From NCBI GenBank assembly GCA_900547995.1, contig URIY01000003.1, positions 1 through 54,492 on the forward strand: a stretch of 54,492 nucleotides of DNA, written 5' to 3'. How positions within the stretch are numbered: position 1 is the stretch's first letter; each line of letters begins with the position of its first letter. The position numbers and the translations under genes are program-made. The notes beneath the pieces were generated by a model. That model did no database searches. It was given only the letters and a program-made list of their open reading frames with translations, and was not told the DNA's origin. The stretch is from an uncultured Mycoplasmatota bacterium (lineage in GTDB: Bacteria > Bacillota_I > Bacilli_A > RF39 > UBA660). This document shows, one piece after another, positions 2,874-38,124 of the stretch.

Positions 2874-2887
2874 AGGAAGGGATTTAT

Positions 2888-3751
2888 GTGAGTGTAACAA
2901 TTATAATGTGGATTAGTTTTATAACTAACCTTTTTCTTTCTATAATTAAAATAGTTATTGGTTATATTTTTAACTCAGGGGCTTTAATTGCTGATGGGGT
3001 TCATTCATGTAGTGATTTAACTACAGATGTAATTGCCGTTGTTGGGGCAACTTTATCTAAAAAACCAGCCGATACTAAACATCCATATGGTCATGGTAAG
3101 ATAGAGTATTTAACTAGTTTAATTATAGGAATTGTTATTCTTTTCCTAGGATTATCTATTATAGGTAGTTCATTTAATAGAAAAATTGTTGTACCAAGTA
3201 TTGTTGTTGCTATAGTAACGGTTTTTACTATAGTTGCAAAATATATTTTATCTAGTTTTTTAATAAAAGAAGGAAAGATACAAAAAAATAATATTCTTAT
3301 ATCTAGTGGAAAAGAAAGTAGAACAGATGTAGTTAGTTCTATTGTTGTACTTATTTCATCTGTTGCCATGCAGTTTAGCAATAAAATAAACTTTTTAAAA
3401 TATGCAGATATTGTTGCAATGATTATAGTTGGTATTTTTATAGTTAGAGTAGGATTTTTGATTTTAAAAGAAAATATAAGTATTTTAATTGGTGAATGTG
3501 AAACGGATGAAGAAATAATTAATAGTTTAAAGGCAATTATTTTAGATTTTAAAAATATTAAAAAGATAGATAAAATTAATTTATTAAAATATGGTTCATA
3601 TTATGAACTTACTTGTGAAATATCTATAGATAGTAATTTAAGTTTTATAGATGCTCATAGTATTGTTCATGGGGTTGAGGATATAATAAGAAAAGATAAT
3701 GATAAAATAAAATATATAACAATACATGCCAATCCGAATGATAGTATTTAA
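2888..3751 (+). CDS. Cation diffusion facilitator (CDF) family metal efflux transporter
   Basis: Six predicted TM segments. ADGVHSCSDLTTD (HxxxD) in TM2, plus a C-terminal cytoplasmic domain. GTG at 2888 follows AAGGAAGG; the TTG at 2855 would overlap polA. Confidence 0.75.
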   Translation: MSVTIIMWISFITNLFLSIIKIVIGYIFNSGALIADGVHSCSDLTTDVIAVVGATLSKKPADTKHPYGHGKIEYLTSLIIGIVILFLGLSIIGSSFNRKIVVPSIVVAIVTVFTIVAKYILSSFLIKEGKIQKNNILISSGKESRTDVVSSIVVLISSVAMQFSNKINFLKYADIVAMIIVGIFIVRVGFLILKENISILIGECETDEEIINSLKAIILDFKNIKKIDKINLLKYGSYYELTCEISIDSNLSFIDAHSIVHGVEDIIRKDNDKIKYITIHANPNDSI

Positions 3752-3792
3752 TAATAAGTTACATTTATAATATTGTTTGTATAATAAAATTA

Positions 3793-3837
3793 AAAGAAAC
3801 CATTTGATTTGTTGAGCAAGTGGTTTCTTTATTATTG
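3793..3837 (+). terminator. Rho-independent terminator after the CDF gene
   Basis: AAAGAAACCA (3793-3802) pairs with TGGTTTCTTT (3821-3830). The loop is long (18 nt). A T-rich tail follows. Confidence 0.5.
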
Positions 3838-3903
3838 GGCAACTAATGGTATATAAAAATTCAAATGACTAATAAAATTCCATGTTTTATTATACTTGCA
3901 TTA

Positions 3904-3932
3904 TTGTATAATTTTTCTTGATTTAGTATAAT
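3904..3932 (+). promoter_or_regulatory. Putative sigma-A promoter for the PP-loop/murD operon
   Basis: TTGTAT (3904-3909), 17-nt spacer, TATAAT (3927-3932), about 20 nt upstream of the RBS GAGGGTGA. Confidence 0.3.
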
Positions 3933-3952
3933 ATTAAGAAGAGGGTGATTTT

Positions 3953-5323
3953 ATGACTGACAACTTTAGTAAATTTAAAGAATATAGAAATCTTTATCCT
4001 AATTTTATATACAAAAGTTTTGAAAAAATATATAGTGATGATGAATTAAAAATAATTTACCATTTTGAAATAGAAGGATTGAAAGAATTTAATCCAAGTA
4101 TTACTTTTAACAAAAATATCATTAGAGAAAATATAGATGAAGAATTTATGGATTATTTAGTTTTTCACGTTGGAATGGTAGAACTTGTTAGCTATTTTAA
4201 GTGTACTTGTAGTCCTAATGTTATTATTAAAGCTGGATATGTAGATGAAGAACAAATAAATTGGTTTAAGAAATTATATTATTATGGACTTGGAGAATTT
4301 TTCTATGTAAATGGTATTCATACATCTATAGATGATTTTATGAATATAACATGTTTATGTGAGAAAAAAGAATATAAAACAAGTTATAATGGCAGGGGTA
4401 ATTTAATACCTATTGGTGGTGGAAAAGATTCAGTTGTTAGTCTTGAATTATTAAAAGAATATCATGATATAAATAATCCCTTTATTATTAATCCAAAGGA
4501 TGTAACTTTGAGTTGTGCAAATGCTGCAGGATATAATAAAGAAAATATTGTTACTGTTAAAAGGGTAATTGATAAAAATTTAATAGAATTAAATAGTAAA
4601 GGTTTTTTAAATGGACACACACCGTTTAGTGCTTTAGTTGCTTTTTTATCATATTTGTCGGCATATTTATGTGGTAAGAAATATATTGTTTTATCTAATG
4701 AATCAAGTGCTAATGAATCAACAGTGGTTGGAACAAAAATAAATCATCAATATTCGAAAACATATGAATTTGAAAATGATTTTAATAATTATACAAAAAA
4801 ATATTTTAATATAGATATTAAATATTTTAGTTTATTAAGACCCCTTAGTGAATTTCAAATAGGAATGTTATTTTCACATTATGAGAAGTATCATCAAATC
4901 TTTAAAAGTTGTAATGTAGGATCTAAAGAAAATCCATGGAAATGGTGTTGTAATTGTCCTAAATGTTTATTTGTTTATATTATTTTAAGTCCTTTTCTTT
5001 ATAAAGAAAAACTTATAAATATATTTGGTGAAGATTTATTTGCCAAAGAAAGTTTACTTGAAACATATAAAGAATTAATTGGAGATGCAGCAACTAAACC
5101 TTTTGAATGTGTTGGAACAATTAATGAGGTAAGGTATGCATCAAGTGTAGTTATTAAGTCTTTAGAAAATCAACATGATAAATTACCATATTTACTTGAA
5201 TATTATAAAAATAATTATGAATTAGTTTTAGATGATAAAATATTAAAAAATTTTAATAATGAGAATAATTTAGATGATGATTTTGTTACTATTCTAAAAA
5301 AGGAGTTAGATAAGTATGTATAA
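3953..5323 (+). CDS. PP-loop (SGGxDS-like) ATP-pyrophosphatase-fold protein translationally coupled to murD; possible MurL-type UDP-MurNAc-L-Ala-L-Glu epimerase
   Basis: IPIGGGKDSVVSLELL is a PP-loop-like motif. A Cys cluster is present (SCNVGSKENPWKWCCNCPKC). The 3' end overlaps the murD start by 8 nt. The MurL assignment is inference from context and recalled family properties. Confidence 0.45.
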   Translation: MTDNFSKFKEYRNLYPNFIYKSFEKIYSDDELKIIYHFEIEGLKEFNPSITFNKNIIRENIDEEFMDYLVFHVGMVELVSYFKCTCSPNVIIKAGYVDEEQINWFKKLYYYGLGEFFYVNGIHTSIDDFMNITCLCEKKEYKTSYNGRGNLIPIGGGKDSVVSLELLKEYHDINNPFIINPKDVTLSCANAAGYNKENIVTVKRVIDKNLIELNSKGFLNGHTPFSALVAFLSYLSAYLCGKKYIVLSNESSANESTVVGTKINHQYSKTYEFENDFNNYTKKYFNIDIKYFSLLRPLSEFQIGMLFSHYEKYHQIFKSCNVGSKENPWKWCCNCPKCLFVYIILSPFLYKEKLINIFGEDLFAKESLLETYKELIGDAATKPFECVGTINEVRYASSVVIKSLENQHDKLPYLLEYYKNNYELVLDDKILKNFNNENNLDDDFVTILKKELDKYV

Positions 5324-6644
5324 AGAAATAATTGATTTTTTGGAAGATAAATATGTTGCGATTGTTGGATTTGGTAAAGAAGGTAAATCGACATATAAAT
5401 TTTTAAGAAAATATTTACCTAATCAAAGACTAGTAATTATTGATGGAAATAAAGATTTACTAGATAATAATGCTTATCTTAATAATGATAAAAATATTGA
5501 ATTAGTTTTGGGAGATAATTATTTAGATAATTTAGATAAATATGATGCTATTATTAAATCACCTGGTGTTAGATTTAAAGATATTGATATATCAAAATTT
5601 GAGGATAAAATAACATCACAACTTGGTTTAGTACTGGATTATTATAAAGATAATATTATTGGAATTACTGGTACTAAAGGTAAAAGTACGACAACTAGTT
5701 TGATTACTAAAATACTAAAAGATCAAGGAATAGATGCCTATTTACTTGGCAATATTGGTATACCAATATTTGATAATATTGATAAAATGAATGAAAAAAG
5801 TATGATGGTTATTGAAATGGCCGCCTTACAACTAGAATTTGTGAAAAATTCACCACATATTGGTATAGTATTAAATTTATTTGAAGAACATTTAGATTTC
5901 TTTAAGGATAAAAATGCTTACTTTTTAGCTAAAATGAATATGTTTAAATATCAAAATGAAAATGATTATGGTATTTATACTTCATCAAATGATACATTAG
6001 AGTCTTATGTTAATCAAAATAATTATAAATCACACCTAATAGATGTAAGAAAAGATTTAAAAATAGAAGATAATTATATTGTTAATAATAGTAAGAAATT
6101 ATATAATATATCTTCAGAAAGACATTTACTTGGTGACCATAATTTAAGTAATATTATGTTTGCACTTGAGGTAAGTAAAATACTTGATTTAGATATTTTA
6201 AAAGTGTCTAATTCTATAAATGAATTTAAACCTCTTGAACATAGAATGGAATATGTTGACACTATTAATGGAGTAAAGTATTATAATGATTCCATTGCTA
6301 CTATACCTGCCGCAACTATTAATTGTGTTAATGCTTTAAAAGATGTTGATACTATTATCTTTGGCGGAATGGATAGAGGGATAGATTATAGTGTTTTAAT
6401 AGAATTTTTTAATAATAGTGATATAAAAAACTTTATTTGTATGCCAGAAACGGGATATAAAATAGGTAAAGAAATAAAGGGAAAAAATGTTTATTTTATC
6501 GAAGATTTAAAAGATGCTGTGAAAAAGGCTAAAGAGGTAACCAAGAAGATATGTGTTATGTCACCTGCCGCTTCTAGTTATAATGCTTTTAAAAATTTTG
6601 AAGAAAAAGGAAGAGCATATAAAGCATACGTGAAGGAAAGTTAA
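5316..6644 (+). CDS. murD: UDP-N-acetylmuramoyl-L-alanine--glutamate ligase (MurD; possibly an L-Glu-adding MurD2 type)
   Basis: N-terminal Rossmann segment VAIVGFGKEGKS. Mur ligase P-loop GITGTKGKSTTTSLI. Length of 442 aa is typical of MurD. Confidence 0.85.
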   Translation: MYKEIIDFLEDKYVAIVGFGKEGKSTYKFLRKYLPNQRLVIIDGNKDLLDNNAYLNNDKNIELVLGDNYLDNLDKYDAIIKSPGVRFKDIDISKFEDKITSQLGLVLDYYKDNIIGITGTKGKSTTTSLITKILKDQGIDAYLLGNIGIPIFDNIDKMNEKSMMVIEMAALQLEFVKNSPHIGIVLNLFEEHLDFFKDKNAYFLAKMNMFKYQNENDYGIYTSSNDTLESYVNQNNYKSHLIDVRKDLKIEDNYIVNNSKKLYNISSERHLLGDHNLSNIMFALEVSKILDLDILKVSNSINEFKPLEHRMEYVDTINGVKYYNDSIATIPAATINCVNALKDVDTIIFGGMDRGIDYSVLIEFFNNSDIKNFICMPETGYKIGKEIKGKNVYFIEDLKDAVKKAKEVTKKICVMSPAASSYNAFKNFEEKGRAYKAYVKES

Positions 6645-22721: not shown

Positions 22722-24308
22722 ATGAAAGAATATAATGGAGAAGCATTCTTGAATAAAATATATAAGGATTTACATATGTCGGACGTTGTAATGCGTACAG
22801 CAAATTCTAGTGATAATCCTAGTCAAAAAATAAATAAATATATGGGAAGACTAGAAAAAATGCATAGTAATAAAAATGAAAATATTAAAAAAAATATAAT
22901 GAATTTATATCATGAAAAATATGTAATAAAAGAAGAAAATTTAACTGGATATGGTAATAAACAAACAGAAAAAATTAGGAAACAAATAATAGATGCTCAA
23001 ATAAAAACATTAGATATGTGGATAAATTATTTAATAGATGAGAATGCAAAATATCCAATGTGGGCTAAATATTGGGCATTTCGAGGTATGTTAAAAATAG
23101 GAGCATATGATGAAGCAACAGATACATATAAGAAAAGAAGCGAAAAAACAGCAGCTCCATTTGTAGAGGCAAACCCAGAAGTAATAGCACAATGTATAGA
23201 TTTAACAGTAAAACAAGTAAATAAAAAATTGGATGAAATAAATGTTGGAGAAGAAGGATTAAAACGATTAGTAGAGTCAGGGTCATTTCAAAAATTATAT
23301 CTAACTTTATTGAAAAAACAAAAGAAAATTCAATATCTAAAAAGTGGATTTGAAGGTAAATGGATAAAATATAATTATTGTAGTATGGAAGATGCCATAA
23401 AATTATATAATTCTTTACAGGGATATGGTACTAATTGGTGCACAGCAGGAAGTAAACAGACAGCAATAGACCAGGTATGTGGAGGAACTGGTTATCCAGG
23501 AGGCGATTTCTATGTATATTATACATTAGATGAAAGTAATGAATATAGAATACCAAGAATTGCTATTAGAATGAATGGGACAACAAAAATAGATGAGATA
23601 AGAGGAGTAGTAGATGCGTCACAAAATTTAGAAGATGGAATGGAACGTATAGTAGAAGATAAGCTTAATACTTTTAATTTTTTACCATGCAATGATAGAG
23701 AAGAATATATTGGTGCGGTTAATGATTGTAAAATGTTAACAAACTTAAATAGAAAGACGTCAAATAAAGAAGAATTAACATATGAAGAATATATTTTTCT
23801 ATATGAGGTAGAAAGAAATATAAGAGGCTTTGGATGGGAAAGAGACCCAAGAATAGAAAAAATAAGAAGTATAAATATAATTAAAGATAAGCATATTGCA
23901 ATTAAAATTTTATCAATAGATGGTATGTCATTACAATATGTGAATGAAGAATTACAAAATAATTTTGAAATAGTAAAACTAGCAGTAAGTCAAAACGGTA
24001 TGTCATTACAATATGCGAGTGAAGAATTACAAAATAATGTAGAAATAGCAAAATTAGCGGTAAGTCAAAATGGTTATGCATTACAATATGCGAGTGAAGA
24101 ATTACGAAATAATTCTGAAATAGTAAAACTGGCAGTAAGTCAAAAAGGCAATGCATTACAATATGTCGGCCCAAAATTGCAAAATAATGTAGAAATAGCA
24201 AAATTAGCAGTAAGCCAAAATAGACATGCATTATTATATGTCAATCTGGAATTACGAAATTATTTTCATTGTCAAATCAAATGTAATAGTAAATTAAATA
24301 AATCATAA
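22722..24308 (+). CDS. Hypothetical protein with C-terminal DUF4116-type 25-aa repeats
   Basis: The C-terminus carries four full units (GMSLQYVNEELQNNFEIVKLAVSQN-like) plus one partial unit. The N-terminal ~390 aa were not recognised. Confidence 0.7.
   Translation: MKEYNGEAFLNKIYKDLHMSDVVMRTANSSDNPSQKINKYMGRLEKMHSNKNENIKKNIMNLYHEKYVIKEENLTGYGNKQTEKIRKQIIDAQIKTLDMWINYLIDENAKYPMWAKYWAFRGMLKIGAYDEATDTYKKRSEKTAAPFVEANPEVIAQCIDLTVKQVNKKLDEINVGEEGLKRLVESGSFQKLYLTLLKKQKKIQYLKSGFEGKWIKYNYCSMEDAIKLYNSLQGYGTNWCTAGSKQTAIDQVCGGTGYPGGDFYVYYTLDESNEYRIPRIAIRMNGTTKIDEIRGVVDASQNLEDGMERIVEDKLNTFNFLPCNDREEYIGAVNDCKMLTNLNRKTSNKEELTYEEYIFLYEVERNIRGFGWERDPRIEKIRSINIIKDKHIAIKILSIDGMSLQYVNEELQNNFEIVKLAVSQNGMSLQYASEELQNNVEIAKLAVSQNGYALQYASEELRNNSEIVKLAVSQKGNALQYVGPKLQNNVEIAKLAVSQNRHALLYVNLELRNYFHCQIKCNSKLNKS
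23922..24266 (+). repeat. Tandem 75-nt coding repeats (4 full units plus 1 partial)
   Basis: Units start at 23922, 23997, 24072, 24147 and 24222 and show high nucleotide similarity. Confidence 0.9.
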
Positions 24309-26216: not shown

Positions 26217-27959
26217 ATGATTAGTATTGACAAAATATTAAAACTGGAAAATATAAATAATTATATTCTATCATTAAATACAAATGAAAGAGTAGTTATT
26301 TTAAAGAATGACATGGTTAGAGATTATTATTTAGAGGACTATAATAATTCAAAATTCAAAAAGCTTATATTAGATTTACCTAATGATGAAATATTAGAGT
26401 TTATTGATGATGAAATGATAAATAAAATTTTAAGTAATGATAATTGTAAAAAAATAATGTATGAAATTCTTTATAATGTTTCATCAAAATTTACTAATAT
26501 AATATTTCAAAATGAAAAAATGATAGAAAGAATAGTAAATGATGATGAGTTACACACATACATTTTACATTTACGTGGTAATATTACAGAAAAACTATTT
26601 AATTATATTATCAAAATAGATAAAATAAGTGTTTTAGAGTATTTAAATCCTACTGATTTCAATAGACTTTTGGAAAGAGAAGACATAAAGAATAAAATAA
26701 AAATAATTGTTAGTGATGAATTATTAAAAAAAATACCTTCAACAGCCTTAAGTAAATTATTATTTGATTCATATTTTAGATCAAAACTTTCAAAAATGAA
26801 AATAGATGATATATACTTTAAGATAAAAAAGGGTTTAATACTTCCCAATTTTTATATGTATGATGAGGATTTTATTTTCAAATTTATAAATATTACCAAT
26901 ATACCTATGAGAAGAATTTATATCAAAGCATTAATGAATAATAATTACTCTTTATATGAAATTATAAATAATAGATTAAAAGAAACATATGATAATAATA
27001 TTTTTAATGAATTAATTAATGAATATAATATGGTTACAAGAGCAAGTGATGATGAAGAGTTAAAAAGTAAAATTTGGTTACTATATTCAGATAAATGTTT
27101 ACAATTATTAATTGATAGATATTTTGAAGACTTTGATGGAAATGTTTTAACAAATATATGTACTATTTTAAATTTTAATAAAACAAATAATGTTATTTCA
27201 CCAGAAAGGTTAAAATATTATAATTTAATAATGAATTTTGATAAATATGATATTAATACTATGATAAAAATATATAAAATAATGCCTAAAGATATTGGAA
27301 CATGGTTATATGAAGATTTTAGAAAATGTCAAAATGTATCTTATGATCTTATAAATAAAGAAACTGTGGATATATCTAAACTAAAGGAAGAAAAAGTAGA
27401 TGGTATTTCAATATATGAATTAAATGGTGAAGAGTTTGTTCTGCTTGTTAATACATTAATTTATAGAAGAAGTGAAGATGACATCAAATGGGGTAATGAT
27501 AGAAGTAAAACATTGTCATTAACTCTAATTGGAAATGAAAGTTTAGGTACTTATAGGGAGCAAGATGAATATCTAATTGTTGGATTTAAAAATATTAATA
27601 TTAATGATATTATGCATGTATATCATAGTGATTCCTTTTCATCTTATGAGGATTCAACCAATAGGGTAAATGAAATATATACACCACATGAATTACTATC
27701 TAATACAAAAGGATATAATGAAATACTTGTTTCACAAGATGAAACGAAGAACACTCTATTAAAACCTGATTATGTAGTCTGTTATAATAAAGTTCTTGAA
27801 GAAGATATTAAGAGTGCTAAAAAATTAGGAAATATTCCTATTATTCTTATCAATACTAAATATTATTCTATGAAATATTCAGGGATAGAATATGAAGAAA
27901 ATAATTATGTAAGAGATATAGAGGACTTGTATTCATATGAATATAAAAAGGTAAAATAA
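26217..27959 (+). CDS. Hypothetical protein (580 aa), no recognisable domain
   Basis: Long ORF with a GGTGA RBS, divergent from rnj. Rich in N, K and I. No motif identified. Confidence 0.6.
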   Translation: MISIDKILKLENINNYILSLNTNERVVILKNDMVRDYYLEDYNNSKFKKLILDLPNDEILEFIDDEMINKILSNDNCKKIMYEILYNVSSKFTNIIFQNEKMIERIVNDDELHTYILHLRGNITEKLFNYIIKIDKISVLEYLNPTDFNRLLEREDIKNKIKIIVSDELLKKIPSTALSKLLFDSYFRSKLSKMKIDDIYFKIKKGLILPNFYMYDEDFIFKFINITNIPMRRIYIKALMNNNYSLYEIINNRLKETYDNNIFNELINEYNMVTRASDDEELKSKIWLLYSDKCLQLLIDRYFEDFDGNVLTNICTILNFNKTNNVISPERLKYYNLIMNFDKYDINTMIKIYKIMPKDIGTWLYEDFRKCQNVSYDLINKETVDISKLKEEKVDGISIYELNGEEFVLLVNTLIYRRSEDDIKWGNDRSKTLSLTLIGNESLGTYREQDEYLIVGFKNININDIMHVYHSDSFSSYEDSTNRVNEIYTPHELLSNTKGYNEILVSQDETKNTLLKPDYVVCYNKVLEEDIKSAKKLGNIPIILINTKYYSMKYSGIEYEENNYVRDIEDLYSYEYKKVK

Positions 27960-28007: not shown

Positions 28008-29000
28008 ATGGGATTATTTGACAAATTTAAAAACATCTTTACTAAAGAAAAAAAAGATATAGAAGAGATTAATAATTATGAAAAAGGTCTTGAAAAAACA
28101 AGAGAAAACTTTTCATCTAAATTAAGTGTTCTTAGTAAAAAACATAAAAAACTAGATGATTCATATTTTGAAGATTTAGAAGAAATAATGATAGAAGCTG
28201 ATATTGGCGTTAATACCGTTATTAAAATGATTGAAAAATTAAGAAAACGCGTTAAAGATGAAAATATTATTGATATAGATGATTTAAAAGAAATCATAGT
28301 TGATGAAATGTTTATTATATATGTAAATAATCAAGTAATTTCAAATAAAATTAATTATTCAAAAAATGAAAACCCAACCGTTATTTTATTTGTTGGTGTA
28401 AATGGTGTTGGTAAAACGACATCTATTGGTAAAATGGCATATAAATTAAAAAATGAGGGCAAAAAAGTTTTACTAGTTGCAGGTGATACTTTTAGAGCAG
28501 GCGCTATTGAACAAATAATTGATTGGGGAGAACAAACTGATTGCCCAGTTATTTATAAAGAAAATGCCGATCCAGCAAGTGTTGTATTTGAAGGAATAAC
28601 AAAAGCAAAAAATGAGGAATATGATGTTGTTCTTGTCGATACAGCAGGAAGACTTCAAAATAAAGTTAATTTGATGAAGGAACTTGAAAAAATAAACAAA
28701 GTAATTAGTAATATTATACCTGAAGCACCTCATGAGACTCTTTTAGTTATTGATGCGACTACAGGGCAAAATGGAATTAGTCAAGCCAAAAGTTTTAAAG
28801 AAATTACTAATATTACAGGAATCGTTTTAACCAAATTAGATGGTACGGCTAAAGGTGGAATTGTTCTTGCTATAAAAGATAGTGTTGATATACCTGTTAA
28901 GTATGTAGGTCTTGGTGAAAAATATAATGATTTTAGTGTATTTGATATAGAAAAATATATATATGGATTATTTAAGGATATGGTGAAAAATGAAGAATAA
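28008..29000 (+). CDS. ftsY: Signal recognition particle receptor FtsY
   Basis: SRP GTPase motifs GVNGVGKTTSIGK, DTAGRLQNK and TKLDGTAKGG. Confidence 0.95.
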   Translation: MGLFDKFKNIFTKEKKDIEEINNYEKGLEKTRENFSSKLSVLSKKHKKLDDSYFEDLEEIMIEADIGVNTVIKMIEKLRKRVKDENIIDIDDLKEIIVDEMFIIYVNNQVISNKINYSKNENPTVILFVGVNGVGKTTSIGKMAYKLKNEGKKVLLVAGDTFRAGAIEQIIDWGEQTDCPVIYKENADPASVVFEGITKAKNEEYDVVLVDTAGRLQNKVNLMKELEKINKVISNIIPEAPHETLLVIDATTGQNGISQAKSFKEITNITGIVLTKLDGTAKGGIVLAIKDSVDIPVKYVGLGEKYNDFSVFDIEKYIYGLFKDMVKNEE

Positions 29001-29256
29001 TAAAAAAGAAATTACTAATGTTTTCTTAATAGCTCAATTAATATTATCAATATTTGCTGTTGTATTTCTAATTATTTCTATTTTTGAACCTAGTTTTTAC
29101 TATGCAGTAGAAGTAATTTTAGCCCTTACATTGTTTGTTATGGCTTATAATAATAAAACATTATATAAAAGAAAATATATGACAATTATCTATGGATTAT
29201 TTGGGTTATTCTTATTTGTAAGTGGTCTTATTGGTGTTATAAATGGAAGAGTATAA
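28990..29256 (+). CDS. Small membrane protein (88 aa, ~3 TM helices)
   Basis: GGTGA RBS. Overlaps the ftsY 3' end by 11 nt and the ylxM start by 14 nt. Strongly hydrophobic. Confidence 0.45.
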   Translation: MKNNKKEITNVFLIAQLILSIFAVVFLIISIFEPSFYYAVEVILALTLFVMAYNNKTLYKRKYMTIIYGLFGLFLFVSGLIGVINGRV

Positions 29257-29545
29257 TTTATATATTATTTCATTATATGATATATATAACAGTCTTTTAA
29301 CAGATAAGCAAAAACTATATTTTGAAGATTATTACTTTAATAATTTAAGTTTATCAGAAATGAGTGAAAACTATGAAGTTAGTAGAAATGCTATACATAA
29401 ACAAATAAAAGAAGTAAATAGTAAATTAGAAGATTTTGAATTAAAACTTAAAATAAAAGAAAAGAATATAAAATTAAAAGAATTAATTAATAAAATAGAT
29501 GATTCTAAGTTAAGATTAGAATTAGAAAAAATAATTGAAGAATAA
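29243..29545 (+). CDS. ylxM: YlxM/p13-like putative DNA-binding protein (UPF0122), SRP operon member
   Basis: LTDKQKLYFEDYYFNNLSLSEMSENYEVSRNAIHKQIKE is the sigma-70 region-4-like HTH typical of YlxM. Confidence 0.85.
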   Translation: MEEYNLYIISLYDIYNSLLTDKQKLYFEDYYFNNLSLSEMSENYEVSRNAIHKQIKEVNSKLEDFELKLKIKEKNIKLKELINKIDDSKLRLELEKIIEE

Positions 29546-29560
29546 AAGGGAGTTAATAAT

Positions 29561-31312
29561 ATGTTTGGTAAAATAGTTTATATGAATAATAATGTAGCCC
29601 ATATAAAATTAACAAGTGGTATGGATGCTGCATCTAATTTAATGAATATGCATGTTGTTTTTGAAGATCAAGATAGTAAATTTGTTGCTGAAGTTGAAGA
29701 TGTAAGTGAGGATTTGATTAAAGTTATTTTTTTAGGTGAATTTGTAAATAATCGTTTTGTTGGAGGTATTATTCGTAAACCACCACTTACATCTAGTTTA
29801 AGATTAATAAATGAGAGTGAACTTGACCTAATATTAAGTGATAATGAAAATGGCTTTCAAATTGGTATTTCACCACTTTATAATAATCATCCAATTACTG
29901 CAAGTATAAATTCTTTATTTGGTCATCATATGGCTGTATTTGGAAATACTGGTAGTGGTAAATCTTGTTCTTTTGCCAGCATACTACAAAGTATTTTTAA
30001 AGCACCTAATATGCTTCCATATAATGCCAATTTTTTAGTTTTTGATACATATGGGGAATATCGTTATGCTTTTAGGGATTTAAACAAATATAATCCTAAT
30101 TTAAATTTTAAAGTATATACAACTAATAAAAAAGATGGATGTGAATTACTTAGAATACCATTATGGCTTTTAAATGTTGACGATATGGCATTACTTCTTG
30201 GAGCGACAGAACATTCACAATTAACTATCATTGAGAGAATGTTAAAAATTGTATCTATTTTTTCACAATCTGATGAGAAATCAGAAGATTATAAAAATCA
30301 TTTACTTGCTAAAGCCATAATGTCTGTTTTATATTCTAATCAACCAGCAGCTGCTAAAAGAAACGATATTTTTTCTTTGGTATCAACTTGTACAACTAGT
30401 AAGTTTAATCTTGAAGCACCAGTTCCAGGTCTTGGATATGTAAGAAAATTTAGAGAATGTTTTTTAATTAATAGAGAAGGTGGCTTTTCTGAAAGTAATA
30501 TTTTAACTGAATATGTTAGTAGTTTTATAAAAGATGACTTAGATAAATATGATCCTGAAACAACTAATTTTTATACACTTGAAGATTTGGAAAAGGCCCT
30601 TGATTATACGCTTATTTCAGAAGGATTACTTCAAAATGAAAAGGCTTATAGTTCAGCTATTACTCTAAAAGTTAAGTTACATTCTATTGTAATTGGAGAA
30701 TATGCAGATTATTTTAAATATGATAAATATATAAACTTAGATAGTTATGTTGCTAGTCTTGTTAATTGTAATGGAAGAAAAGCTCAAATTGTTGATTTTA
30801 ATTTGGAAGATGTTGATGATTGGTTTGGAAGAGTTATTACTAAAATATATTCACATATGGTATTTGATTTTGTAAAAAAACTTCCTAATCGTGCTTCAAT
30901 ACCCTTTCATATCTTCTTAGAGGAAGCTCATAGGTATGTTCGTAATGATAATGACGCTAATTTAATTGGATATAATATTTTTGAAAGGATTGCTAAAGAG
31001 GGAAGAAAATTTGGTATTATTTTAAGTTTAATATCTCAAAGACCTGTTGAAATATCTGAAACAGTTGTTTCTCAGTGTTCAAACTTTTTAATATTTAGAA
31101 TTAACCATCCAAGGGATATTGATTATATCAAAAGAATGCTTCCAAATATTAATGCTGAAATTGTTGAAAAACCAAAGAGTTTTCATCCAGGAGTATGTGT
31201 AGCTTTTGGTAGTGCTTTTAAAGTACCAGCCATAGTTAAAATACCAATGCCAAATCCAGCACCAGGTAGTTCAAACTGTGATGTATTTGCAAGATGGAAT
31301 GTAAAAAAATAA
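29561..31312 (+). CDS. HerA/DUF87-type (FtsK-HerA superfamily) P-loop ATPase
   Basis: N-terminal HAS-barrel-like segment (MFGKIVYMNNNVAHIKL...HVVFED...FVAEVEDVSEDLIKVIFLGEF). Walker A is GNTGSGKS (29942-29965). Walker B is HIFLEEAH (30908-30931). ISQRP...QCSNFLIFRINHPRD follows. GGGAG RBS. Confidence 0.8.
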   Translation: MFGKIVYMNNNVAHIKLTSGMDAASNLMNMHVVFEDQDSKFVAEVEDVSEDLIKVIFLGEFVNNRFVGGIIRKPPLTSSLRLINESELDLILSDNENGFQIGISPLYNNHPITASINSLFGHHMAVFGNTGSGKSCSFASILQSIFKAPNMLPYNANFLVFDTYGEYRYAFRDLNKYNPNLNFKVYTTNKKDGCELLRIPLWLLNVDDMALLLGATEHSQLTIIERMLKIVSIFSQSDEKSEDYKNHLLAKAIMSVLYSNQPAAAKRNDIFSLVSTCTTSKFNLEAPVPGLGYVRKFRECFLINREGGFSESNILTEYVSSFIKDDLDKYDPETTNFYTLEDLEKALDYTLISEGLLQNEKAYSSAITLKVKLHSIVIGEYADYFKYDKYINLDSYVASLVNCNGRKAQIVDFNLEDVDDWFGRVITKIYSHMVFDFVKKLPNRASIPFHIFLEEAHRYVRNDNDANLIGYNIFERIAKEGRKFGIILSLISQRPVEISETVVSQCSNFLIFRINHPRDIDYIKRMLPNINAEIVEKPKSFHPGVCVAFGSAFKVPAIVKIPMPNPAPGSSNCDVFARWNVKK

Positions 31313-31328
31313 ACAAAAGAGGTGAAGT

Positions 31329-31721
31329 ATGAATATTTCATATGATGATATTAAAACCTATATAAGTAATTGTGATGATATTGAAAAATCAGCTCTTGCT
31401 ATAAAATTTTATAATATAAGTAAAAATTATAAAGATAAAAAAGAAAAAATTAATTTAATAAATATTAAGTCTGCTATTAATCGTATTTCTGAAGTTTATG
31501 AAAAGGAAAAGCAGAAATCAACATATCTTAGAGCAAATTATATTTTCATGAAAAATTTATACAATAATTTTCAAATTGATGATACAGAAAAAATAGATAC
31601 TTTATTATTAATGATTACTATCATGGAAGGATTATTAGACTTAAAGATTAGTTTCCAAGGCTATACAAAAAAGTATTTAGAAGGTATTATAAATAAAAAT
31701 GGAAAGATGAAAAGACTATGA
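31329..31721 (+). CDS. Hypothetical protein (130 aa), second gene of the HerA-like operon
   Basis: AGAGGTGA RBS 16 nt after the ATPase stop. Predicted helical. No family recognised. Confidence 0.6.
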   Translation: MNISYDDIKTYISNCDDIEKSALAIKFYNISKNYKDKKEKINLINIKSAINRISEVYEKEKQKSTYLRANYIFMKNLYNNFQIDDTEKIDTLLLMITIMEGLLDLKISFQGYTKKYLEGIINKNGKMKRL

Positions 31722-33640
31722 ATAGATGGGAATTATTGAGACAAAGTATACAAGAACTAATTCAAAAATATGAGTTAAAACTTTATGATCTTGAAAGTTC
31801 AATTGATGATTGTGAAAAAATAAAATCTTTTCTTGATAGTTATAGTAAACAAAATTATGATATAAATTCTTTACTAAATATATCAAAAAACTCAGTCTTT
31901 AGTGATGAAGTAAAAAATTTAATTGAATTAATAAAGACGGAAATTGTTATTAAAAATTATGCCTTTTTAGAAAAACAATATGATGAGAAACATGCTGAAA
32001 TAGAGAAAAATATTCAAAAACTTCGCTCAAAATATCAACAAACAAATATAAATAATTCAAGGAATAATACATATAAGGAAGAATATGATTTTTATACTAA
32101 AATATACTCAATAATAGGTAATACTGGATTAACAGAAGTATGTTCTTTAGAAGCTCTTGATTTTTTAATTGATAATGTTGAAATGTTAAATATTGATGAT
32201 AAAGAAAAAGAACTTCTAGTACTTGAATTATCACAATCAAATGTTTCTTTAATGAAACAAAATATCGATACAGAGATTAAAAGGAATAATACAATAAAAG
32301 GATATACTAAGGTAATAGAAACTGAAGACAAGAATAGTAATATTACGGATATTGATTATAAATCATACATAGATAATGCAAAGAAAATAATTGAAGCAAA
32401 ACAAAATCTAAATAGTGAAGAAGTTAAACTTATACAATCTCAATTAAAAAAATGTAAGAGTTTTGAAGAAAGAAAAAAACTTTATAGTTCTACTAGTGAT
32501 TTTGATGTTTGTAAATTTGTAATTAGTTGGGATTTAGAAAATAATATTTTAAATAGTTTAAATAATGATAATTATCAGTTATTAATATCTATAATAGATT
32601 ATTATAATGAAATTTGTGAAAGAGAAAGATTAATAAATGAAGTTAATGGTAAAAGTATTTATCAATTACTTGAAGAAAATCACTTTTCTAGGGAATTAGA
32701 TCTTTTTCAAAAAAGTGAAGAAATGTCTAAATTATATAATGATTTTGTAGCCAATAGTTATAGATATGTTATAAATGATGATGAATTAGGTTTAGATAAA
32801 ATTCAAATAATATGTAAAAATTTAAATGATGATATTGGAGTCTTTAAAGTGGCTGTTAAATCTTATTTTGAAAATAATAAAAAAGATATTGAAGAATTTA
32901 ATTTTGGATGTAATTGTTTATTAGAAAAATATAATATGGCTATTGAATACGCTGATACACTAAAGGGTATAATGTCTCAAGACATCTCTAATAATGAAAA
33001 TCAAATACATGACAATACAGAGGATAATTTATTAAACAAAGATAATAAATCCATTTTAATTTTTATTTCAAGTGATGATAATGAAGTTTCGACAATGGAG
33101 AAAAACCTATTTGAAGATAAAGATAGAAGATATGAAAGTTTTGATGCCGTTAAAGACGGTTTAAATAAACTTATGAAAACAGGTGAAATGACAGCCGATG
33201 ACCACAGAGCAAAAACGGACAATTATTCGATAGAGTTTGTTAAAAAGTATCGATTAAAAGGATATAAATGTGGAAATTATCGTATAATTACAACAAGAAG
33301 AAATACTTGTATGGGACAAGTTTTAAAAGATTTTCCTGAAAATGTTTTTGTAAATCTTATTTTTTCAGCAGGTTATGGCGATTGTGGTGGCAGTCAAAAA
33401 GAGGCCGTATTTGATGCTGGATATAAGGAATGTTATGATAATAGAGGTAAAGTTGATGAAATTTTAGAATTAATTAATACTAAGTGGAATGAATTAACTG
33501 ATGATACTGAAAAACAACAAAAACTTACAAGATTAAAAGAAATAATGCATAATAGTCAAAAAATGTATGATCATTTCTTAAATACTAGTAAAGAAATAAA
33601 TGATAGTAGAAGGGGGCATAATTATGAAGGAATTAATTAA
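31718..33640 (+). CDS. Large coiled-coil protein (640 aa) with a possible C-terminal RelE/ParE-like domain
   Basis: The start overlaps the upstream stop (ATGA). About 440 aa of heptad-like, K/E/N-rich sequence. The C-terminal segment ILIFISS...FVKKYRLKGYKCGNYRIITTRR...VFVNLIFSAGYG resembles the RelE/ParE beta-sheet signature. Confidence 0.6.
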   Translation: MNRWELLRQSIQELIQKYELKLYDLESSIDDCEKIKSFLDSYSKQNYDINSLLNISKNSVFSDEVKNLIELIKTEIVIKNYAFLEKQYDEKHAEIEKNIQKLRSKYQQTNINNSRNNTYKEEYDFYTKIYSIIGNTGLTEVCSLEALDFLIDNVEMLNIDDKEKELLVLELSQSNVSLMKQNIDTEIKRNNTIKGYTKVIETEDKNSNITDIDYKSYIDNAKKIIEAKQNLNSEEVKLIQSQLKKCKSFEERKKLYSSTSDFDVCKFVISWDLENNILNSLNNDNYQLLISIIDYYNEICERERLINEVNGKSIYQLLEENHFSRELDLFQKSEEMSKLYNDFVANSYRYVINDDELGLDKIQIICKNLNDDIGVFKVAVKSYFENNKKDIEEFNFGCNCLLEKYNMAIEYADTLKGIMSQDISNNENQIHDNTEDNLLNKDNKSILIFISSDDNEVSTMEKNLFEDKDRRYESFDAVKDGLNKLMKTGEMTADDHRAKTDNYSIEFVKKYRLKGYKCGNYRIITTRRNTCMGQVLKDFPENVFVNLIFSAGYGDCGGSQKEAVFDAGYKECYDNRGKVDEILELINTKWNELTDDTEKQQKLTRLKEIMHNSQKMYDHFLNTSKEINDSRRGHNYEGIN

Positions 33641-35411
33641 TATAATTGAGAAGAAGATTGCTAAATATAATAAACAAATTATATTAAATGAAAATAATAC
33701 TGAAATTTTTTCTTCGATAATAAAAGAATTTAATGATTCATATTTGCCTTCTATAACTATGGAAGAAGCAAATGAAATTAGAAAAAATATGGATTTAACA
33801 ATTGACGAAAGTAACTTGCTTGCTCTTTTACAAAGTATTACCGATGAAAATAGAAATATTATTCTATCTTTGGGTTTGGATAGTAATCAGAAAGATATTA
33901 TAGAACAGTTTAAAAAGAAGATTAATGAACTTGCTATGAAATATAGTAAAGCAAGTATTGATGACATATATACAAATCTTAAAATATATAAAAATTTATT
34001 ATCAAAACTAAATAATAATGATATTAATTTAATTACAGAATTAGATGTAATTTATAGATTAATGGAAGAAAATAATTTTGAATATAGGCAAATTATTGAT
34101 ATATTAAGAAAAGTAAATGGTATGAATAGTAGAATATATGCAAATTATGCCAATAATGACAAAAGTGATATTAATTTATCACAAGAAGATGATATTTGTG
34201 AAGATAATTTAATCTCATACAACAATGATAGAGAAAAAATAATTAGTTTATTTAAAAAATATAATATTGATTTTATGAATTTTGATGAAAATTTACAAAA
34301 TAATATATTGAATTTAGGTAATTATGATGAAATGAATAAAATATTATCTTGTGTATTAAATCATAATGATTTACTAGGTTTTTTAAATTTAAAAGAATAT
34401 GAACAAATTTTATATAGAACTTTATTGTTTTCATCAGAAGAAAAAATTAATGAGGTTATAGAGAGTGCATTAAAAAATAATGTATCTCAAATATTTAAAA
34501 TATATCCAACTATTCTTTATCCAACTATTAAAGATAAAAGTATAAGAACTAAGAGGAATATAGGTGGTTTTCCACATAAATCCTTTGAAAAAACAGGGGC
34601 ACTAAATTATTATTTAGAGAATGTAAAAATATTAGAAGGAATTGGATATCCTATTGATTTAGCATTTAAAAAATGTTCGTCATTTTTTATTCAAAATTCT
34701 AAAAAAGTAAGAGAGAATCTGGCTTATCTTAAGATGTACAACATTTCTATTTATAATGAAGATGGTAGTTTTAAAAGTTTCCTTTCTACCTTAAAAAGTG
34801 ATAATTTAATTGATAATATTGATATATCAATTGAAAATGGTACATATGAATATTGTAAACAAAATCTTTCTAGATTAGGATGGGATATTATTCCTTATAG
34901 AGTAAAATGTAATGAAAAATTAAAAAGAAATCATGATTTGAGAGCTATTGATAACCCATTTATAATATTCAAAAATAAAACAGAAAAACTTGCACTAAAA
35001 TTACCGTTTTATCAAACAAATTCTGAGATTTTTGGAAAAACTAAGGAAGATGTTTTTGCACTATATGATGCCATAAATCATGGTAGTGATGAGACAATTA
35101 TTTATGATGAATTAGTTAGACTAGGAAATATTGATAATATATCTACGATTGCTTTAGATGATGAATATATAATGTATTTAGAAAATAATTATAAAGAAAA
35201 TGAATATATGTATAACATAAATGGTGTAATTGTATCAAGATACAAAGTTCTTAGATATTACTCATCATTAATTAAACAAGATGATATAAATCCGTCAGAA
35301 GATTTAATAATGTATGTAGTTACACTTAATAGTATGCTTGATCAAGAAGAGTTAAATAATGTATATCAAAATATTCATAAAATAACTGAAAAGAGGTTAC
35401 AAATGGCATGA
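33624..35411 (+). CDS. Helical-repeat protein (~595 aa), fourth gene of the HerA-like operon
   Basis: ATG 33624 follows AGAAGGGGG and overlaps the upstream gene by 17 nt. It carries repeated ~35-40-aa helical units (e.g. LNYYLENVKILEGIGYPIDLAF...). Confidence 0.6.
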   Translation: MKELINIIEKKIAKYNKQIILNENNTEIFSSIIKEFNDSYLPSITMEEANEIRKNMDLTIDESNLLALLQSITDENRNIILSLGLDSNQKDIIEQFKKKINELAMKYSKASIDDIYTNLKIYKNLLSKLNNNDINLITELDVIYRLMEENNFEYRQIIDILRKVNGMNSRIYANYANNDKSDINLSQEDDICEDNLISYNNDREKIISLFKKYNIDFMNFDENLQNNILNLGNYDEMNKILSCVLNHNDLLGFLNLKEYEQILYRTLLFSSEEKINEVIESALKNNVSQIFKIYPTILYPTIKDKSIRTKRNIGGFPHKSFEKTGALNYYLENVKILEGIGYPIDLAFKKCSSFFIQNSKKVRENLAYLKMYNISIYNEDGSFKSFLSTLKSDNLIDNIDISIENGTYEYCKQNLSRLGWDIIPYRVKCNEKLKRNHDLRAIDNPFIIFKNKTEKLALKLPFYQTNSEIFGKTKEDVFALYDAINHGSDETIIYDELVRLGNIDNISTIALDDEYIMYLENNYKENEYMYNINGVIVSRYKVLRYYSSLIKQDDINPSEDLIMYVVTLNSMLDQEELNNVYQNIHKITEKRLQMA

Positions 35412-35701
35412 TAGATAATATTGATAAAATAAACATTAATAATGAAGTAAAAGAGAAAATGGTAAATAATCTATCTAATGATATTTTGATTAGCCTTTCA
35501 CTTAATTATATACTTGTTAATCAAAATATAGCATATTTAGAAAGTATAGGTATTAAAAATATTGATTTATTATTATTAAATAGAGAATACCTATTTCTAA
35601 ATGATACTAATTATATAAAAGAAAGTATAGGAAGATTTAATCTATCATCATTTGTGCAATTAATTAATGATGATTATACTATTATTGATGAAGCATTTTA
35701 A
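35408..35701 (+). CDS. Small helical protein (97 aa) resembling one repeat module of the upstream gene
   Basis: ATGA overlap with the upstream stop. LNYILVNQNIAYLESIGIKNIDLL parallels LNYYLENVKILEGIGYPIDLA in the 595-aa protein. Confidence 0.5.
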   Translation: MIDNIDKININNEVKEKMVNNLSNDILISLSLNYILVNQNIAYLESIGIKNIDLLLLNREYLFLNDTNYIKESIGRFNLSSFVQLINDDYTIIDEAF

Positions 35702-35702
35702 T

Positions 35703-35750
35703 AAAAAGGAAAAGATGTTTGCTTGAAATATAGCCTTTTTCTTTTTTTTA
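35703..35750 (+). terminator. Weak candidate terminator after the five-gene operon
   Basis: AAAAGG...CCTTTT has a short stem and a ~24-nt loop, followed by TCTTTTTTTT. Read-through into ffh is plausible. Confidence 0.25.
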
Positions 35751-35775
35751 TTATATAATTATCTTGGTGATAAAA

Positions 35776-37147: not shown

Positions 37148-37414
37148 ATGTTCGGCAGAAATTGTTGTCAAAAACAACCACAAATGATGGGATGTTGTCA
37201 AAGACAACCACAAATGGAACAATGTGTAATGGAACCAACTATTACAAAATGTGTAGAAAAGGAGTTCTATCATGAAGTTCCACATGTTTGCCCAATACAT
37301 ACACACGTTATAAATCGTCATATCTATAATCATAGTTATACTCCACAATATACATGTTCTGAAGAAACACAAGTAAATAATATAGACAATGGTCCATGTT
37401 GTAAATTTGTATAA
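37148..37414 (+). CDS. CotD-family (inner spore coat protein D-like) Cys/His-rich protein
   Basis: EVPHVCPIHTHVINRHIYNHSYTPQY matches the CotD signature as I recall it. The N-terminus has a CCQ[KR]QPQM duplication. RBS is AAGGGGGA. Confidence 0.6.
   Translation: MFGRNCCQKQPQMMGCCQRQPQMEQCVMEPTITKCVEKEFYHEVPHVCPIHTHVINRHIYNHSYTPQYTCSEETQVNNIDNGPCCKFV
37163..37216 (+). repeat. Two 24-nt near-identical units (30-nt period) inside the CotD-like gene
   Basis: TGTTGTCAAAAACAACCACAAATG (37163-37186) and TGTTGTCAAAGACAACCACAAATG (37193-37216) differ by 1 nt. Confidence 0.9.
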
Positions 37415-37546: not shown

Positions 37547-37789
37547 ATGGAAGCAAGAATTCAAAAATGGGGGAATTCAGATGGAATAAGAATTCCTAGT
37601 AGTATTTTAAAATCCTTAAATATAAAAACTAATGATATATTAAATATAGAGAAACAAGATGATAAAATAATTATTAGTATTCCTAAAAAGAAAAAAATAT
37701 CACTTGCTGATAGATTTAAATCATATAAGGGAAAAAATTTGGCTAAAGATTTTGTTTGGGATGAAAGTGTAGGAAAAGAAATATGGTAA
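37547..37789 (+). CDS. mazE: AbrB/MazE/SpoVT-family antitoxin
   Basis: IQKWGNSDGIRIPSSILKSLNIKTNDIL is a swapped-hairpin AbrB-type domain. It lies directly upstream of, and overlaps by 7 nt, a MazF/PemK-like toxin gene. Confidence 0.8.
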   Translation: MEARIQKWGNSDGIRIPSSILKSLNIKTNDILNIEKQDDKIIISIPKKKKISLADRFKSYKGKNLAKDFVWDESVGKEIW

Positions 37790-38124
37790 AAAGATATACT
37801 CCTAAACAAGGAGATGTTGTTTTATTAGATTTTAATCCAACTAAGGGTCATGAACAATGTGGTTTTAGACCAGCAGTTGTTATTAGTAATAATGTTTTTA
37901 ATGAAAATACTAAAATGGTTATGGTATGCCCCATTTCATCTAATAATAAGAATTTTCCAACACATTATCATTTTGAAGATACTAAAAAAATATATGGTTC
38001 TGTTTTATGTGAACATATAAGAAGTATAGATTATGAAATAAGAAACTTAACTTTTGTGGAAAAATTAAGTGAAAATGATTTAATCAGCATAATTACTTTA
38101 TTAAATGCTTGTATAGAAGATTGA
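37783..38124 (+). CDS. mazF: MazF/PemK-family type II toxin endoribonuclease
   Basis: YTPKQGDVVLLDFNPTKGHEQCGFRPAVVIS...VCPISS...CEHIRSID is the canonical MazF/PemK pattern. Confidence 0.85.
   Translation: MVKRYTPKQGDVVLLDFNPTKGHEQCGFRPAVVISNNVFNENTKMVMVCPISSNNKNFPTHYHFEDTKKIYGSVLCEHIRSIDYEIRNLTFVEKLSENDLISIITLLNACIED

Follow-up and report, generated by a model that had tools for sequence, protein, structure and literature searches.

A resident HerA ATPase gene and a putatively autonomous four-gene cassette at the ylxM–ffh junction of an uncultured gut bacterium

The described HerA-family ATPases closest to the gene considered here belong to the SIR2-HerA and DUF4297-HerA anti-phage systems and to the archaeal HerA-NurA pair, in which the motor is accompanied by a SIR2, a DUF4297/Cap4-like or a NurA partner, respectively. 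Here we analyze a stretch of 54,492 nucleotides—hereafter called the "window"—from an uncultured Mycoplasmatota bacterium (contig URIY01000003.1 of assembly GCA_900547995.1), in which a HerA gene (g1) and four further genes (g2–g5) lie between ylxM and ffh. The initial annotation, made from the sequence alone, proposed that the five genes form one HerA-driven conflict module. This proposal does not hold, as HerA resides at the locus throughout a clade and g2–g5 recur elsewhere without an adjacent HerA; a conflict system made up of g2–g5 alone is conceivable. We propose instead that the window combines a resident orphan HerA with an autonomous cassette, g2–g5, the most likely role of which is that of a conflict module, and we assign this reading as a whole a probability of about 0.55. 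Its parts differ in strength. Genomic comparison makes it very probable that HerA is resident and the cassette autonomous, and it is likely that the cassette proteins act together; conflict or immunity as their function is a tentative assignment, at somewhat less than even odds.

The g1 gene (29561–31312, plus strand, 583 residues), which lies outside the inserted cassette, is identified by its sequence as a HerA-family ATPase with a HAS-barrel-like N-terminus and a DUF87 RecA-like domain. It matches Pfam DUF87 at 1.4e-20 (74.8 bits, cut-off 23.2), the PADLOC HerA model PDLC04102 over residues 47–581 at 2.4e-108 and, in a PDB search, the solved HerA chains of SIR2-HerA, DUF4297-HerA and Sulfolobus at 2e-42 to 4e-28, all of which confirm the HerA call of the initial annotation. 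The Walker A (G128–S135, 29942–29965) and Walker B (HIFLEEAH, residues 450–457, 30908–30931) motifs are found exactly where they had been placed and are practically invariant, with K134, E454 and E455 each conserved in at least 98% of 73 full-length HerA orthologues. Against the NCBIfam anti-phage HerA equivalogs, g1 scores 165 and 155 bits, far under the respective cut-offs of 850 and 800. With Pfam and PADLOC, no SIR2 match was obtained in g2–g5 or the scanned upstream neighbors, and no DUF4297 or nuclease match in g2–g5; with Pfam and NCBIfam, no NurA match was obtained among the scanned window genes. The earlier statement that the partners lack SIR2, DUF4297, NurA, PLD and HNH signatures was upheld, and no known domain was detected in g2–g5 at all.

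How is HerA distributed among the relatives of this bacterium? A scan that took one genome per species found HerA orthologues of 49–89% identity at 79 loci, corresponding to at least 79 species-level genomes, all of which are gut metagenome-assembled genomes labeled "Bacilli", "Tenericutes" or "Mollicutes". The ylxM gene lies directly upstream of HerA in 53 of the 79 loci, after ftsY and usually a small membrane-protein gene. A second HerA sub-clade (49–53% identity) occupies a different conserved housekeeping neighborhood, with alaS-like, mscL and pyrimidine-nucleoside phosphorylase genes upstream and, as judged by eye, ThiF-like, PFOR, nicotinamidase, XerD and RarA-like genes downstream. The first genes downstream of HerA in the related loci were also classified by eye. 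HerA is directly followed by ffh in 10 species, and elsewhere by GlpQ-like, lactate dehydrogenase, carboxypeptidase, pseudopilin, giant surface-protein or rlmN/PP2C/kinase genes; no downstream neighbor is conserved across the 79 loci, and no NurA, SIR2 or DUF4297 partner was seen in them. NurA was likewise not recognized among the neighbors in both sub-clades, which were read by eye and in part profile-scanned. The HerA–ffh junction in L001–L079 (related loci and contigs are denoted by L numbers) is a hotspot of gene-content variation, holding anything from nothing to several kilobases of unrelated genes.

The HerA protein is highly constrained. At least 98% conservation is observed at 129 of its 583 positions among the 73 full-length orthologues. 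We used L081, a strain of the window's species, as the reference for the comparison of nonsynonymous (dN) and synonymous (dS) divergence; relative to it, HerA has dN = 0 and dS = 0.04, and across strains dN is 0 and dS is 0.02–0.04, while dN/dS relative to a sister lineage is 0.04. These values indicate that HerA is under very strong purifying selection. The presence of HerA at 79 loci across the clade, its constraint and its lack of a fixed neighbor together argue that it entered the ylxM–ffh junction once, at the base of the clade, and now behaves like a core gene. The initial annotation had counted HerA as part of the insertion; that view is abandoned here, as HerA is core-like at the locus clade-wide, with or without g2–g5. 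In a comparison of the ylxM–ffh locus across relatives, where the initial annotation would have taken patchy presence as support for an accessory system, g2–g5 were absent from sister species and HerA was present across the clade. The HerA family itself is known, and it is the core-like, partner-less setting that is unusual.

The four genes downstream of HerA are tightly packed on the plus strand. The first cassette gene, g2 (31329–31721), encodes a small helical protein of 130 residues and overlaps the second, g3 (31718–33640; 640 residues, acidic), by an ATGA. The third, g4 (33624–35411; 595 residues, acidic and all-helical), overlaps g3 by 17 nucleotides, and the final gene, g5 (35408–35701; 97 residues, acidic and helical), overlaps g4 by another ATGA. 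Upstream, 15 nucleotides separate the ylxM stop codon (29545) from g1, and 16 separate g1 from g2. The open reading frame (ORF) of g4 opens at 33600 (603 residues), and the gene calls of related contigs start at 33624, after GGAGG, giving 595 residues; judging from these calls, 33624 is most likely the real start. The initial annotation was accurate in these respects: the five same-strand ORFs are present at the sizes it gave (about 595 residues for g4), its gaps and overlaps were all reproduced, and both flanking genes, ylxM and ffh, were verified, the former by Pfam UPF0122. Moreover, g2–g5 are real genes, since the set is conserved at 20–35% protein identity with dN/dS below 1.

The junctions of the cassette were compared with those of L001 and L035, the two closest cassette-free sister species, whose HerA proteins are 87–89% identical. 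In both, HerA lies after ylxM, and downstream of its stop codon come a hairpin terminator, a TATAAT box and then ffh. The window lacks this terminator; in its place are 16 nucleotides (31313–31328, plus strand) that hold a ribosome-binding site alone (AGAGGTGA), and g2–g5 come next. The right junction, an intergenic segment (35702–35775, plus strand), keeps the promoter-like -10 box of ffh (TATAAT at approximately 35754–35759) and the ribosome-binding site GGTGAT, as in the two sister species; the true start of ffh is the ATG at 35776, and the TTG at 35764 falls inside the ribosome-binding site. A scan of the window revealed no terminator-like site between HerA and g2, and promoter-like sites were at chance level (75 found, 73 expected). 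Searches for flanking target-site duplications, repeats and a diversity-generating template gave only AT-rich chance matches. We propose that g2–g5 are a self-contained 4.4-kb unit that was inserted downstream of HerA, between its stop codon and the promoter of ffh, in a common ancestor of the window species and one sister lineage, with deletion of the HerA terminator; the cassette in the window would probably be transcribed by read-through from the ftsY–ylxM–HerA operon.

Homologues of g2–g5 were found in none of the 79 HerA loci by tblastn and phmmer. Where else does the cassette occur? Word-indexed searches reached g3 and g4 homologues in the same narrow lineage only. An exhaustive HMMER search with the conserved C-terminal domain of g3 yielded 37 representatives that are homologous over their full length, most of them 620–720 residues long with the conserved domain at the C-terminus. 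Every complete copy consists of genes for 130–153, 633–722, 592–616 and 97–99 residues in this order, tightly packed or overlapping. All four genes in the other copies are homologous to g2–g5: the g4 and g5 homologues in L089 match at 4e-60 and 5e-18, the g4 proteins of L097 and L089 match each other at 1e-107, and L089, L092, L093 and L097 each carry, at the corresponding position, a g2 homologue of 146–153 residues, with phmmer values of up to 1.8e-18 (L097).

These copies, which belong to other gut Bacillota, occupy at least three further chromosomal sites, making at least four insertion sites in all. In L089, L090, L101 and L102, the cassette lies between an HD-domain gene and rpsL. In L097 and L103–L113, of the Clostridium sp. 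CAG:433 type, it is flanked by the genes of a ZIP-type transporter and of a membrane protein encoded on the minus strand, and ger genes follow further downstream; the CAG:433 cassette proteins CDD29635, CDD29637 and CDD29638 are annotated as "unknown". In L093, it is found just upstream of spoVIF and spoIVA, and the copies in L091 and L092 are on short contigs. The L097 cassette has its own promoter-like sequence with an extended -10 element (TGnTATAAT), which looks, by eye, like the vegetative sigma-A rather than the sporulation type, and hairpin-plus-T-run terminators on both sides. Reading of the genomic contexts showed HerA adjacent to none of the copies outside the window lineage. The autonomy of the cassette is proposed because the same four genes recur at other sites without HerA beside them; this independence is judged from adjacency, as distinct from the whole-genome content of the cassette-bearing genomes. 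An IS1595/ISXO2-like transposase ORF lies just upstream of the cassette in L089 (6834–7880, minus strand) and is absent from the otherwise collinear L090. It is the sole mobile-element gene near any cassette copy, and the earlier observation that no integrase accompanies the partners was borne out.

These distributions bear directly on the idea of one five-gene defense system, in which HerA would be the motor and g2–g5 the sensor and effector, as in SIR2-HerA or DUF4297-HerA. The 16-nucleotide distance between g1 and g2 without an intervening terminator, by which the five genes probably form one transcript, speaks for such a system, as do the best matches of g1 to the PADLOC HerA models and the solved anti-phage HerA chains, and the family-less, fast-evolving nature of the partners. 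However, HerA occurs at this locus without g2–g5 in more than 70 species, g2–g5 occur at at least three other loci without an adjacent HerA, and the HerA protein is invariant while the partner alleles are swapped. The NCBIfam equivalog scores and the lack of SIR2, DUF4297 and NurA domains point the same way. A HerA-driven defense system is thus unlikely; in the five-gene form it is very improbable, and appears from its distribution to be already largely refuted. The tight g1–g2 spacing is attributed to the landing point of the cassette, and not to a common origin.

Next, we consider the evolution of the cassette. In a sliding comparison of the window with L081, the identity is 97–100% in the flanks and drops with sharp edges to 74–92% at approximately 31540–35140. 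This divergence island between strains of one species (to which no strand is assigned) covers the second half of g2, g3 and most of g4. The dS values of g2, g3 and g4 are 0.23, 0.38 and 0.36, with dN/dS of 0.31, 0.40 and 0.27, respectively, as compared to dS of 0.04–0.14 and dN/dS of 0–0.07 for HerA, ffh, ftsY and ylxM. This 4–9-fold dS excess over the flanks indicates that, between these two strains, the cassette alleles are older than their surroundings and were imported by recombination. Consistently, among 14 contigs of the window species and close relatives, the mean pairwise nucleotide divergence is 6.6–8.1% for g2–g4 versus 1.1–3.1% for the neighboring genes. In L083 and L085, which represent the sister lineage (HerA 95.9% identical, HerA dS 0.72), the cassette has a dN/dS of 0.42, as compared to 0.04 for HerA. 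The 52–60% identical alleles of L083 and L085 were considered as intraspecific variants and rejected as such, because L085 belongs to the sister lineage.

A similar pattern, focused on g3, is observed in the CAG:433 lineage. Between L109 and L097, the scanned flanking genes are identical except for the ZIP gene, and g2, g4 and g5 are identical or nearly so, whereas g3 shows 43 nonsynonymous and 30 synonymous differences, which form blocks. The blocks of g3 that differ vary with the strain pair: L106 differs only at residues 480–680, and L109 only at residues 40–440. Among the g3 alleles, the C-terminal domain is the most conserved and the region around residues 320–440 the most variable. The divergence patterns of the window species and of CAG:433 indicate, on the evidence of these alignments, that recombination has repeatedly made a mosaic of g3, which is a hotspot in each of these two independent lineages. 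The partners are fast evolving and, in line with the initial annotation, appear to be accessory. Some copies are split into two ORFs (g3 in L103 and L110; g4 in L093, 2695–4476), and represent either pseudogenes or assembly errors.

What kind of proteins does the cassette encode? None of g2–g5 matches a family in Pfam, PADLOC, NCBIfam or PHROGs. A run against PADLOC-DB 2.0.0 gave no significant match for them, the sole listing being HEC-02B for g5 (E = 0.013). Among the wider families, no member of 30 for g3, 6 for g4 and 5 for g5 exceeded the Pfam threshold, and none of the 30 g3-family members matched in PADLOC. PDB sequence and profile searches with g3, its C-terminal domain, g4 and g5 gave chance-level matches only, and a match to S. 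aureus SElX at 7.8e-4 was judged compositional and set aside. No paralogy was detected among g2–g5, HerA and a 580-residue protein encoded upstream of ftsY. All four proteins are devoid of transmembrane segments, and g3, g4 and g5 are net acidic. The C-terminal motifs I-T-x-L/M-E-C/G-L-L-x-L-x-I/V-S/T-F-P of g2 and N-G-V-I-I/V-S-R-x-K-V-L-R-Y-Y of g4 are conserved, the latter strongly. The best conserved of the four is g5, whose homologues of 97–99 residues end every complete cassette copy.

The g3 protein consists of a long helical N-terminal and middle part, which is variable and mosaic, followed by a conserved C-terminal alpha/beta domain. Alignments place this domain, the candidate effector part, at residues 435–631 (33020–33610, plus strand); F449, F507, R522, G554, K561 and L585 are near-invariant throughout the family. 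The AlphaFold2 model of g3, built from 4 sequences, has a mean predicted local distance difference test score (pLDDT) of 64. It is helical over residues 1–420, with values up to about 93 within 210–420, and the C-terminal domain, with the element order beta-alpha-alpha-beta-beta, falls below 50 and is unreliable. The g4 model (7 sequences, pLDDT 43) is unusable. Foldseek searches of PDB and BFVD with the g3 model returned nothing at E ≤ 0.001.

One member of the five in the g5 family matches Pfam mTERF at E = 0.0069, below the threshold, and g5 is weakly similar to residues 322–370 of g4 (hhalign, E = 0.0035), with which it shares a similar motif. An mTERF identity of g4 and g5 was nevertheless rejected: the match is sub-threshold, 0 of 6 g4-family members match and no significant internal repeats were found. 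No repeat array was detectable in g4, and both g4 and g5 are net acidic, which is unusual for a nucleic-acid-binding mTERF protein. The two similarities, like the RelE match described next, are taken as preliminary leads.

A toxin-antitoxin-like addiction module is another candidate, with the g3 C-terminal domain as a divergent RelE/ParE-type RNase held in check by g2 or by the N-terminal part of g3. A profile of this domain (27 sequences) aligns weakly with E. coli RelE in hhalign (P = 0.0039, 83 columns, RelE residues 12–94), pairing an R-I-F-Y strand with R-L-V-Y of RelE, and the modeled element order is compatible with the RelE/ParE superfamily. In addition, a small upstream gene overlaps g3, and a mazEF pair 1.8 kb downstream shows that such modules exist in this genome. 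The match to RelE, however, was not reproduced, as the same comparison with YoeB, YafQ, ParE and HigB found nothing; P = 0.004 is weak given five comparisons, and the domain model has a pLDDT below 50. No RelE-family match was obtained in the Pfam and PDB profile searches or in any profile library, and jackhmmer found no RelE relatives in the fetched loci. Unlike members of that superfamily, the g3 domain comprises about 190 residues and is embedded in a 640-residue protein, and g4 and g5 are unaccounted for in such a simple scheme. We consider this alternative improbable.

A further alternative is that the cassette specifies a lineage-specific structural or housekeeping coiled-coil assembly—cytoskeletal, nucleoid-associated or spore-associated—and that its divergence reflects low constraint and ordinary homologous recombination. 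All four proteins are soluble, helical and of low complexity, without a catalytic motif. Each copy is chromosomal, single and flanked by housekeeping genes, and free of mobile genes except for the IS1595-like gene in L089. At three sites, the cassette has sporulation or germination genes within a few kilobases: L093 has spoVIF and spoIVA, L097 has ger genes, and the window has a CotD-like gene. The gene in the window (37148–37414) encodes a Cys- and Gln-rich protein of 88 residues with weak resemblance to CotD (20.8 bits, cut-off 22), and contains a near-perfect 24-nucleotide tandem duplication (37163–37186 and 37193–37216). The presence of this gene and of spoVIF, spoIVA and ger near the other copies suggests that the cassette hosts are spore formers.

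A structural role is kept under consideration because the proteins contain no known domain, housekeeping genes flank the cassette at every site, its presence appears to be fixed in the window species and dN/dS is below 1. On the other hand, the cassette is absent from the sister species that share the locus and from the HerA regions of 79 related genomes, its insertion sites differ between genera, and some copies are frameshifted. The excess synonymous divergence and block mosaicism center on g3, with identical adjacent genes, and the L097 promoter-like sequence with its extended -10 element appears, by eye, to be of the vegetative sigma-A type. Taken together, we regard a structural role as rather unlikely.

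How might a resident HerA and a conflict cassette then operate? HerA would be an ancient single gene, inherited vertically and resident at the ftsY–(membrane protein)–ylxM–HerA–ffh locus of one clade of uncultured gut Bacilli. Its product would be an active-looking motor ATPase of the hexameric type without a fixed partner, most likely with a housekeeping role in nucleic-acid translocation or repair. The cassette, for its part, would supply four soluble, mostly acidic helical proteins, which may be made in fixed proportions and form one complex, because their start and stop codons overlap. Within this complex, the variable, recombination-shuffled helical part of g3 would serve as the recognition surface, and its conserved C-terminal alpha/beta domain, with its invariant Arg and Lys, would provide the output or effector function; g2, g4 and g5 may act as scaffolds or regulators. 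The most likely role would be that of a conflict module of an uncatalogued, HerA-independent kind, providing immunity against phages or mobile elements or acting as an addiction-type system. Such a module fits best because the gene set is fixed and overlapping, its distribution is patchy and multi-site, it evolves fast and its recombination is focused on g3. Accessory behavior is also suggested by the patchy presence of the cassette across genera and its absence from sister species at the same locus.

Several observations weigh against a conflict module of this kind. No recognizable enzymatic, nuclease, NTPase or sensor domain was found in g2–g5. The cassette lies outside defense islands, with housekeeping genes as flanks at every site, and has no match in phage records, plasmid records or IMG/VR viral contigs; a mobile-element origin of the cassette was rejected on these negative searches. 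It is apparently fixed within the window species and not variably present, being found in each of the 10 contexts obtained with the exact HerA protein, as well as in L080, L081, L084 and L086. Most sampled strains among the 14 contigs share one near-identical allele class. In L083 and L085, the cassette dS equals the flank dS, which points to fast protein evolution there and not to older alleles, and the gene-wide dN/dS remains below 1, short of positive selection. Finally, in the window genome the cassette is probably co-transcribed with HerA, which counts against its full independence.

The remaining features of this very AT-rich window (about 25% G+C) concern the neighboring genes. Upstream of HerA lie ftsY (28008–29000), an 88-residue membrane-protein gene and ylxM (29243–29545; Pfam UPF0122, 5.9e-25), in this order. 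The 580-residue ORF upstream of ftsY (26217–27959) has no family match; its syntenic counterpart in the sister species is 31–36% identical, as compared to 81–83% for ftsY, and it represents a very fast-evolving helical protein. Between the homologue of this ORF and ftsY, L084 (1545–6122) and L119–L123 (approximately 1290–6280), all of the same species, have an additional insert of four genes, which is absent from the window and includes NrtR-like winged-helix and Ham1p-like genes and genes for 701 and 356 residues without a Pfam match. L080 (1468–2892) harbors a 474-residue ftsY allele that is 82% identical to the ftsY of the window, with neighbors at 92–100%, which suggests mosaic recombination in this gene, too. 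Further upstream, a 528-residue ORF (22722–24308) occupies the position of a DUF4116 gene, which is present in L115 and L117, where the Pfam match was seen, and absent from L114 and L116. Downstream, the mazE/mazF (PemK) pair (37547–38124) begins 460 nucleotides after ffh, and Peptidase_MA_2 and Fic genes take its place in L116 (15837–17270).

What would these findings mean? The neighborhood alone would have named a new "HerA defense system", while comparison across genomes shows that the ATPase is unrelated to its apparent partners, which is a caution for the guilt-by-association annotation of defense genes. The carriers are very common in the human gut: in the sequence collection, 167 blocks contain the exact HerA protein, and the cassette proteins of CAG:433 were seen in exact form on hundreds of contigs. 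By the sequence methods applied, the four-gene family has no detectable relative in any protein-family library, and its g3 member is reshuffled between strains. It is conceivable, though doubtful, that g2–g5 constitute a hitherto uncatalogued system of four proteins that serves immunity or conflict in spore-forming gut Bacillota, with no domain common to known defense systems and with g3 as a recombination-diversified sensor bearing a new effector domain, and that, separately, the orphan HerA in the signal-recognition-particle operon represents a new bacterial housekeeping use of the HerA motor. If the cassette is an immune or addiction module, then its type would be new and would come from a little-explored, uncultured part of the gut microbiota; if HerA serves housekeeping in this clade of gut Bacilli, then it could reveal roles of the HerA motor in bacteria beyond defense. 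In either case, further study has a concrete target in this four-gene family, which is widespread and includes a diversifying member.

In comparison with the described systems, g1 shares the HerA architecture, motifs, and structure and PADLOC-model matches with SIR2-HerA, DUF4297-HerA and archaeal HerA-NurA. In contrast to these systems, no SIR2, DUF4297/Cap4-like or NurA partner adjoins g1 or its orthologues at the 79 loci. Outside defense islands, g1 appears to be vertically inherited amid housekeeping genes, as an orphan, clade-wide HerA that scores far beneath the equivalog cut-offs. For the cassette, a possible analogy is provided by the CapRel-type fused toxin-antitoxins, an example of immunity proteins in which sensor and effector are fused and the recognition part is hypervariable. 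The g3 protein differs from them in having no sequence or structural match, in being accompanied by three obligatory partner genes, and in belonging to a cassette that appears fixed within the window species. As in the CapRel-type proteins, however, g3 joins a conserved domain at one terminus to a variable part, which recombination shuffles between strains.

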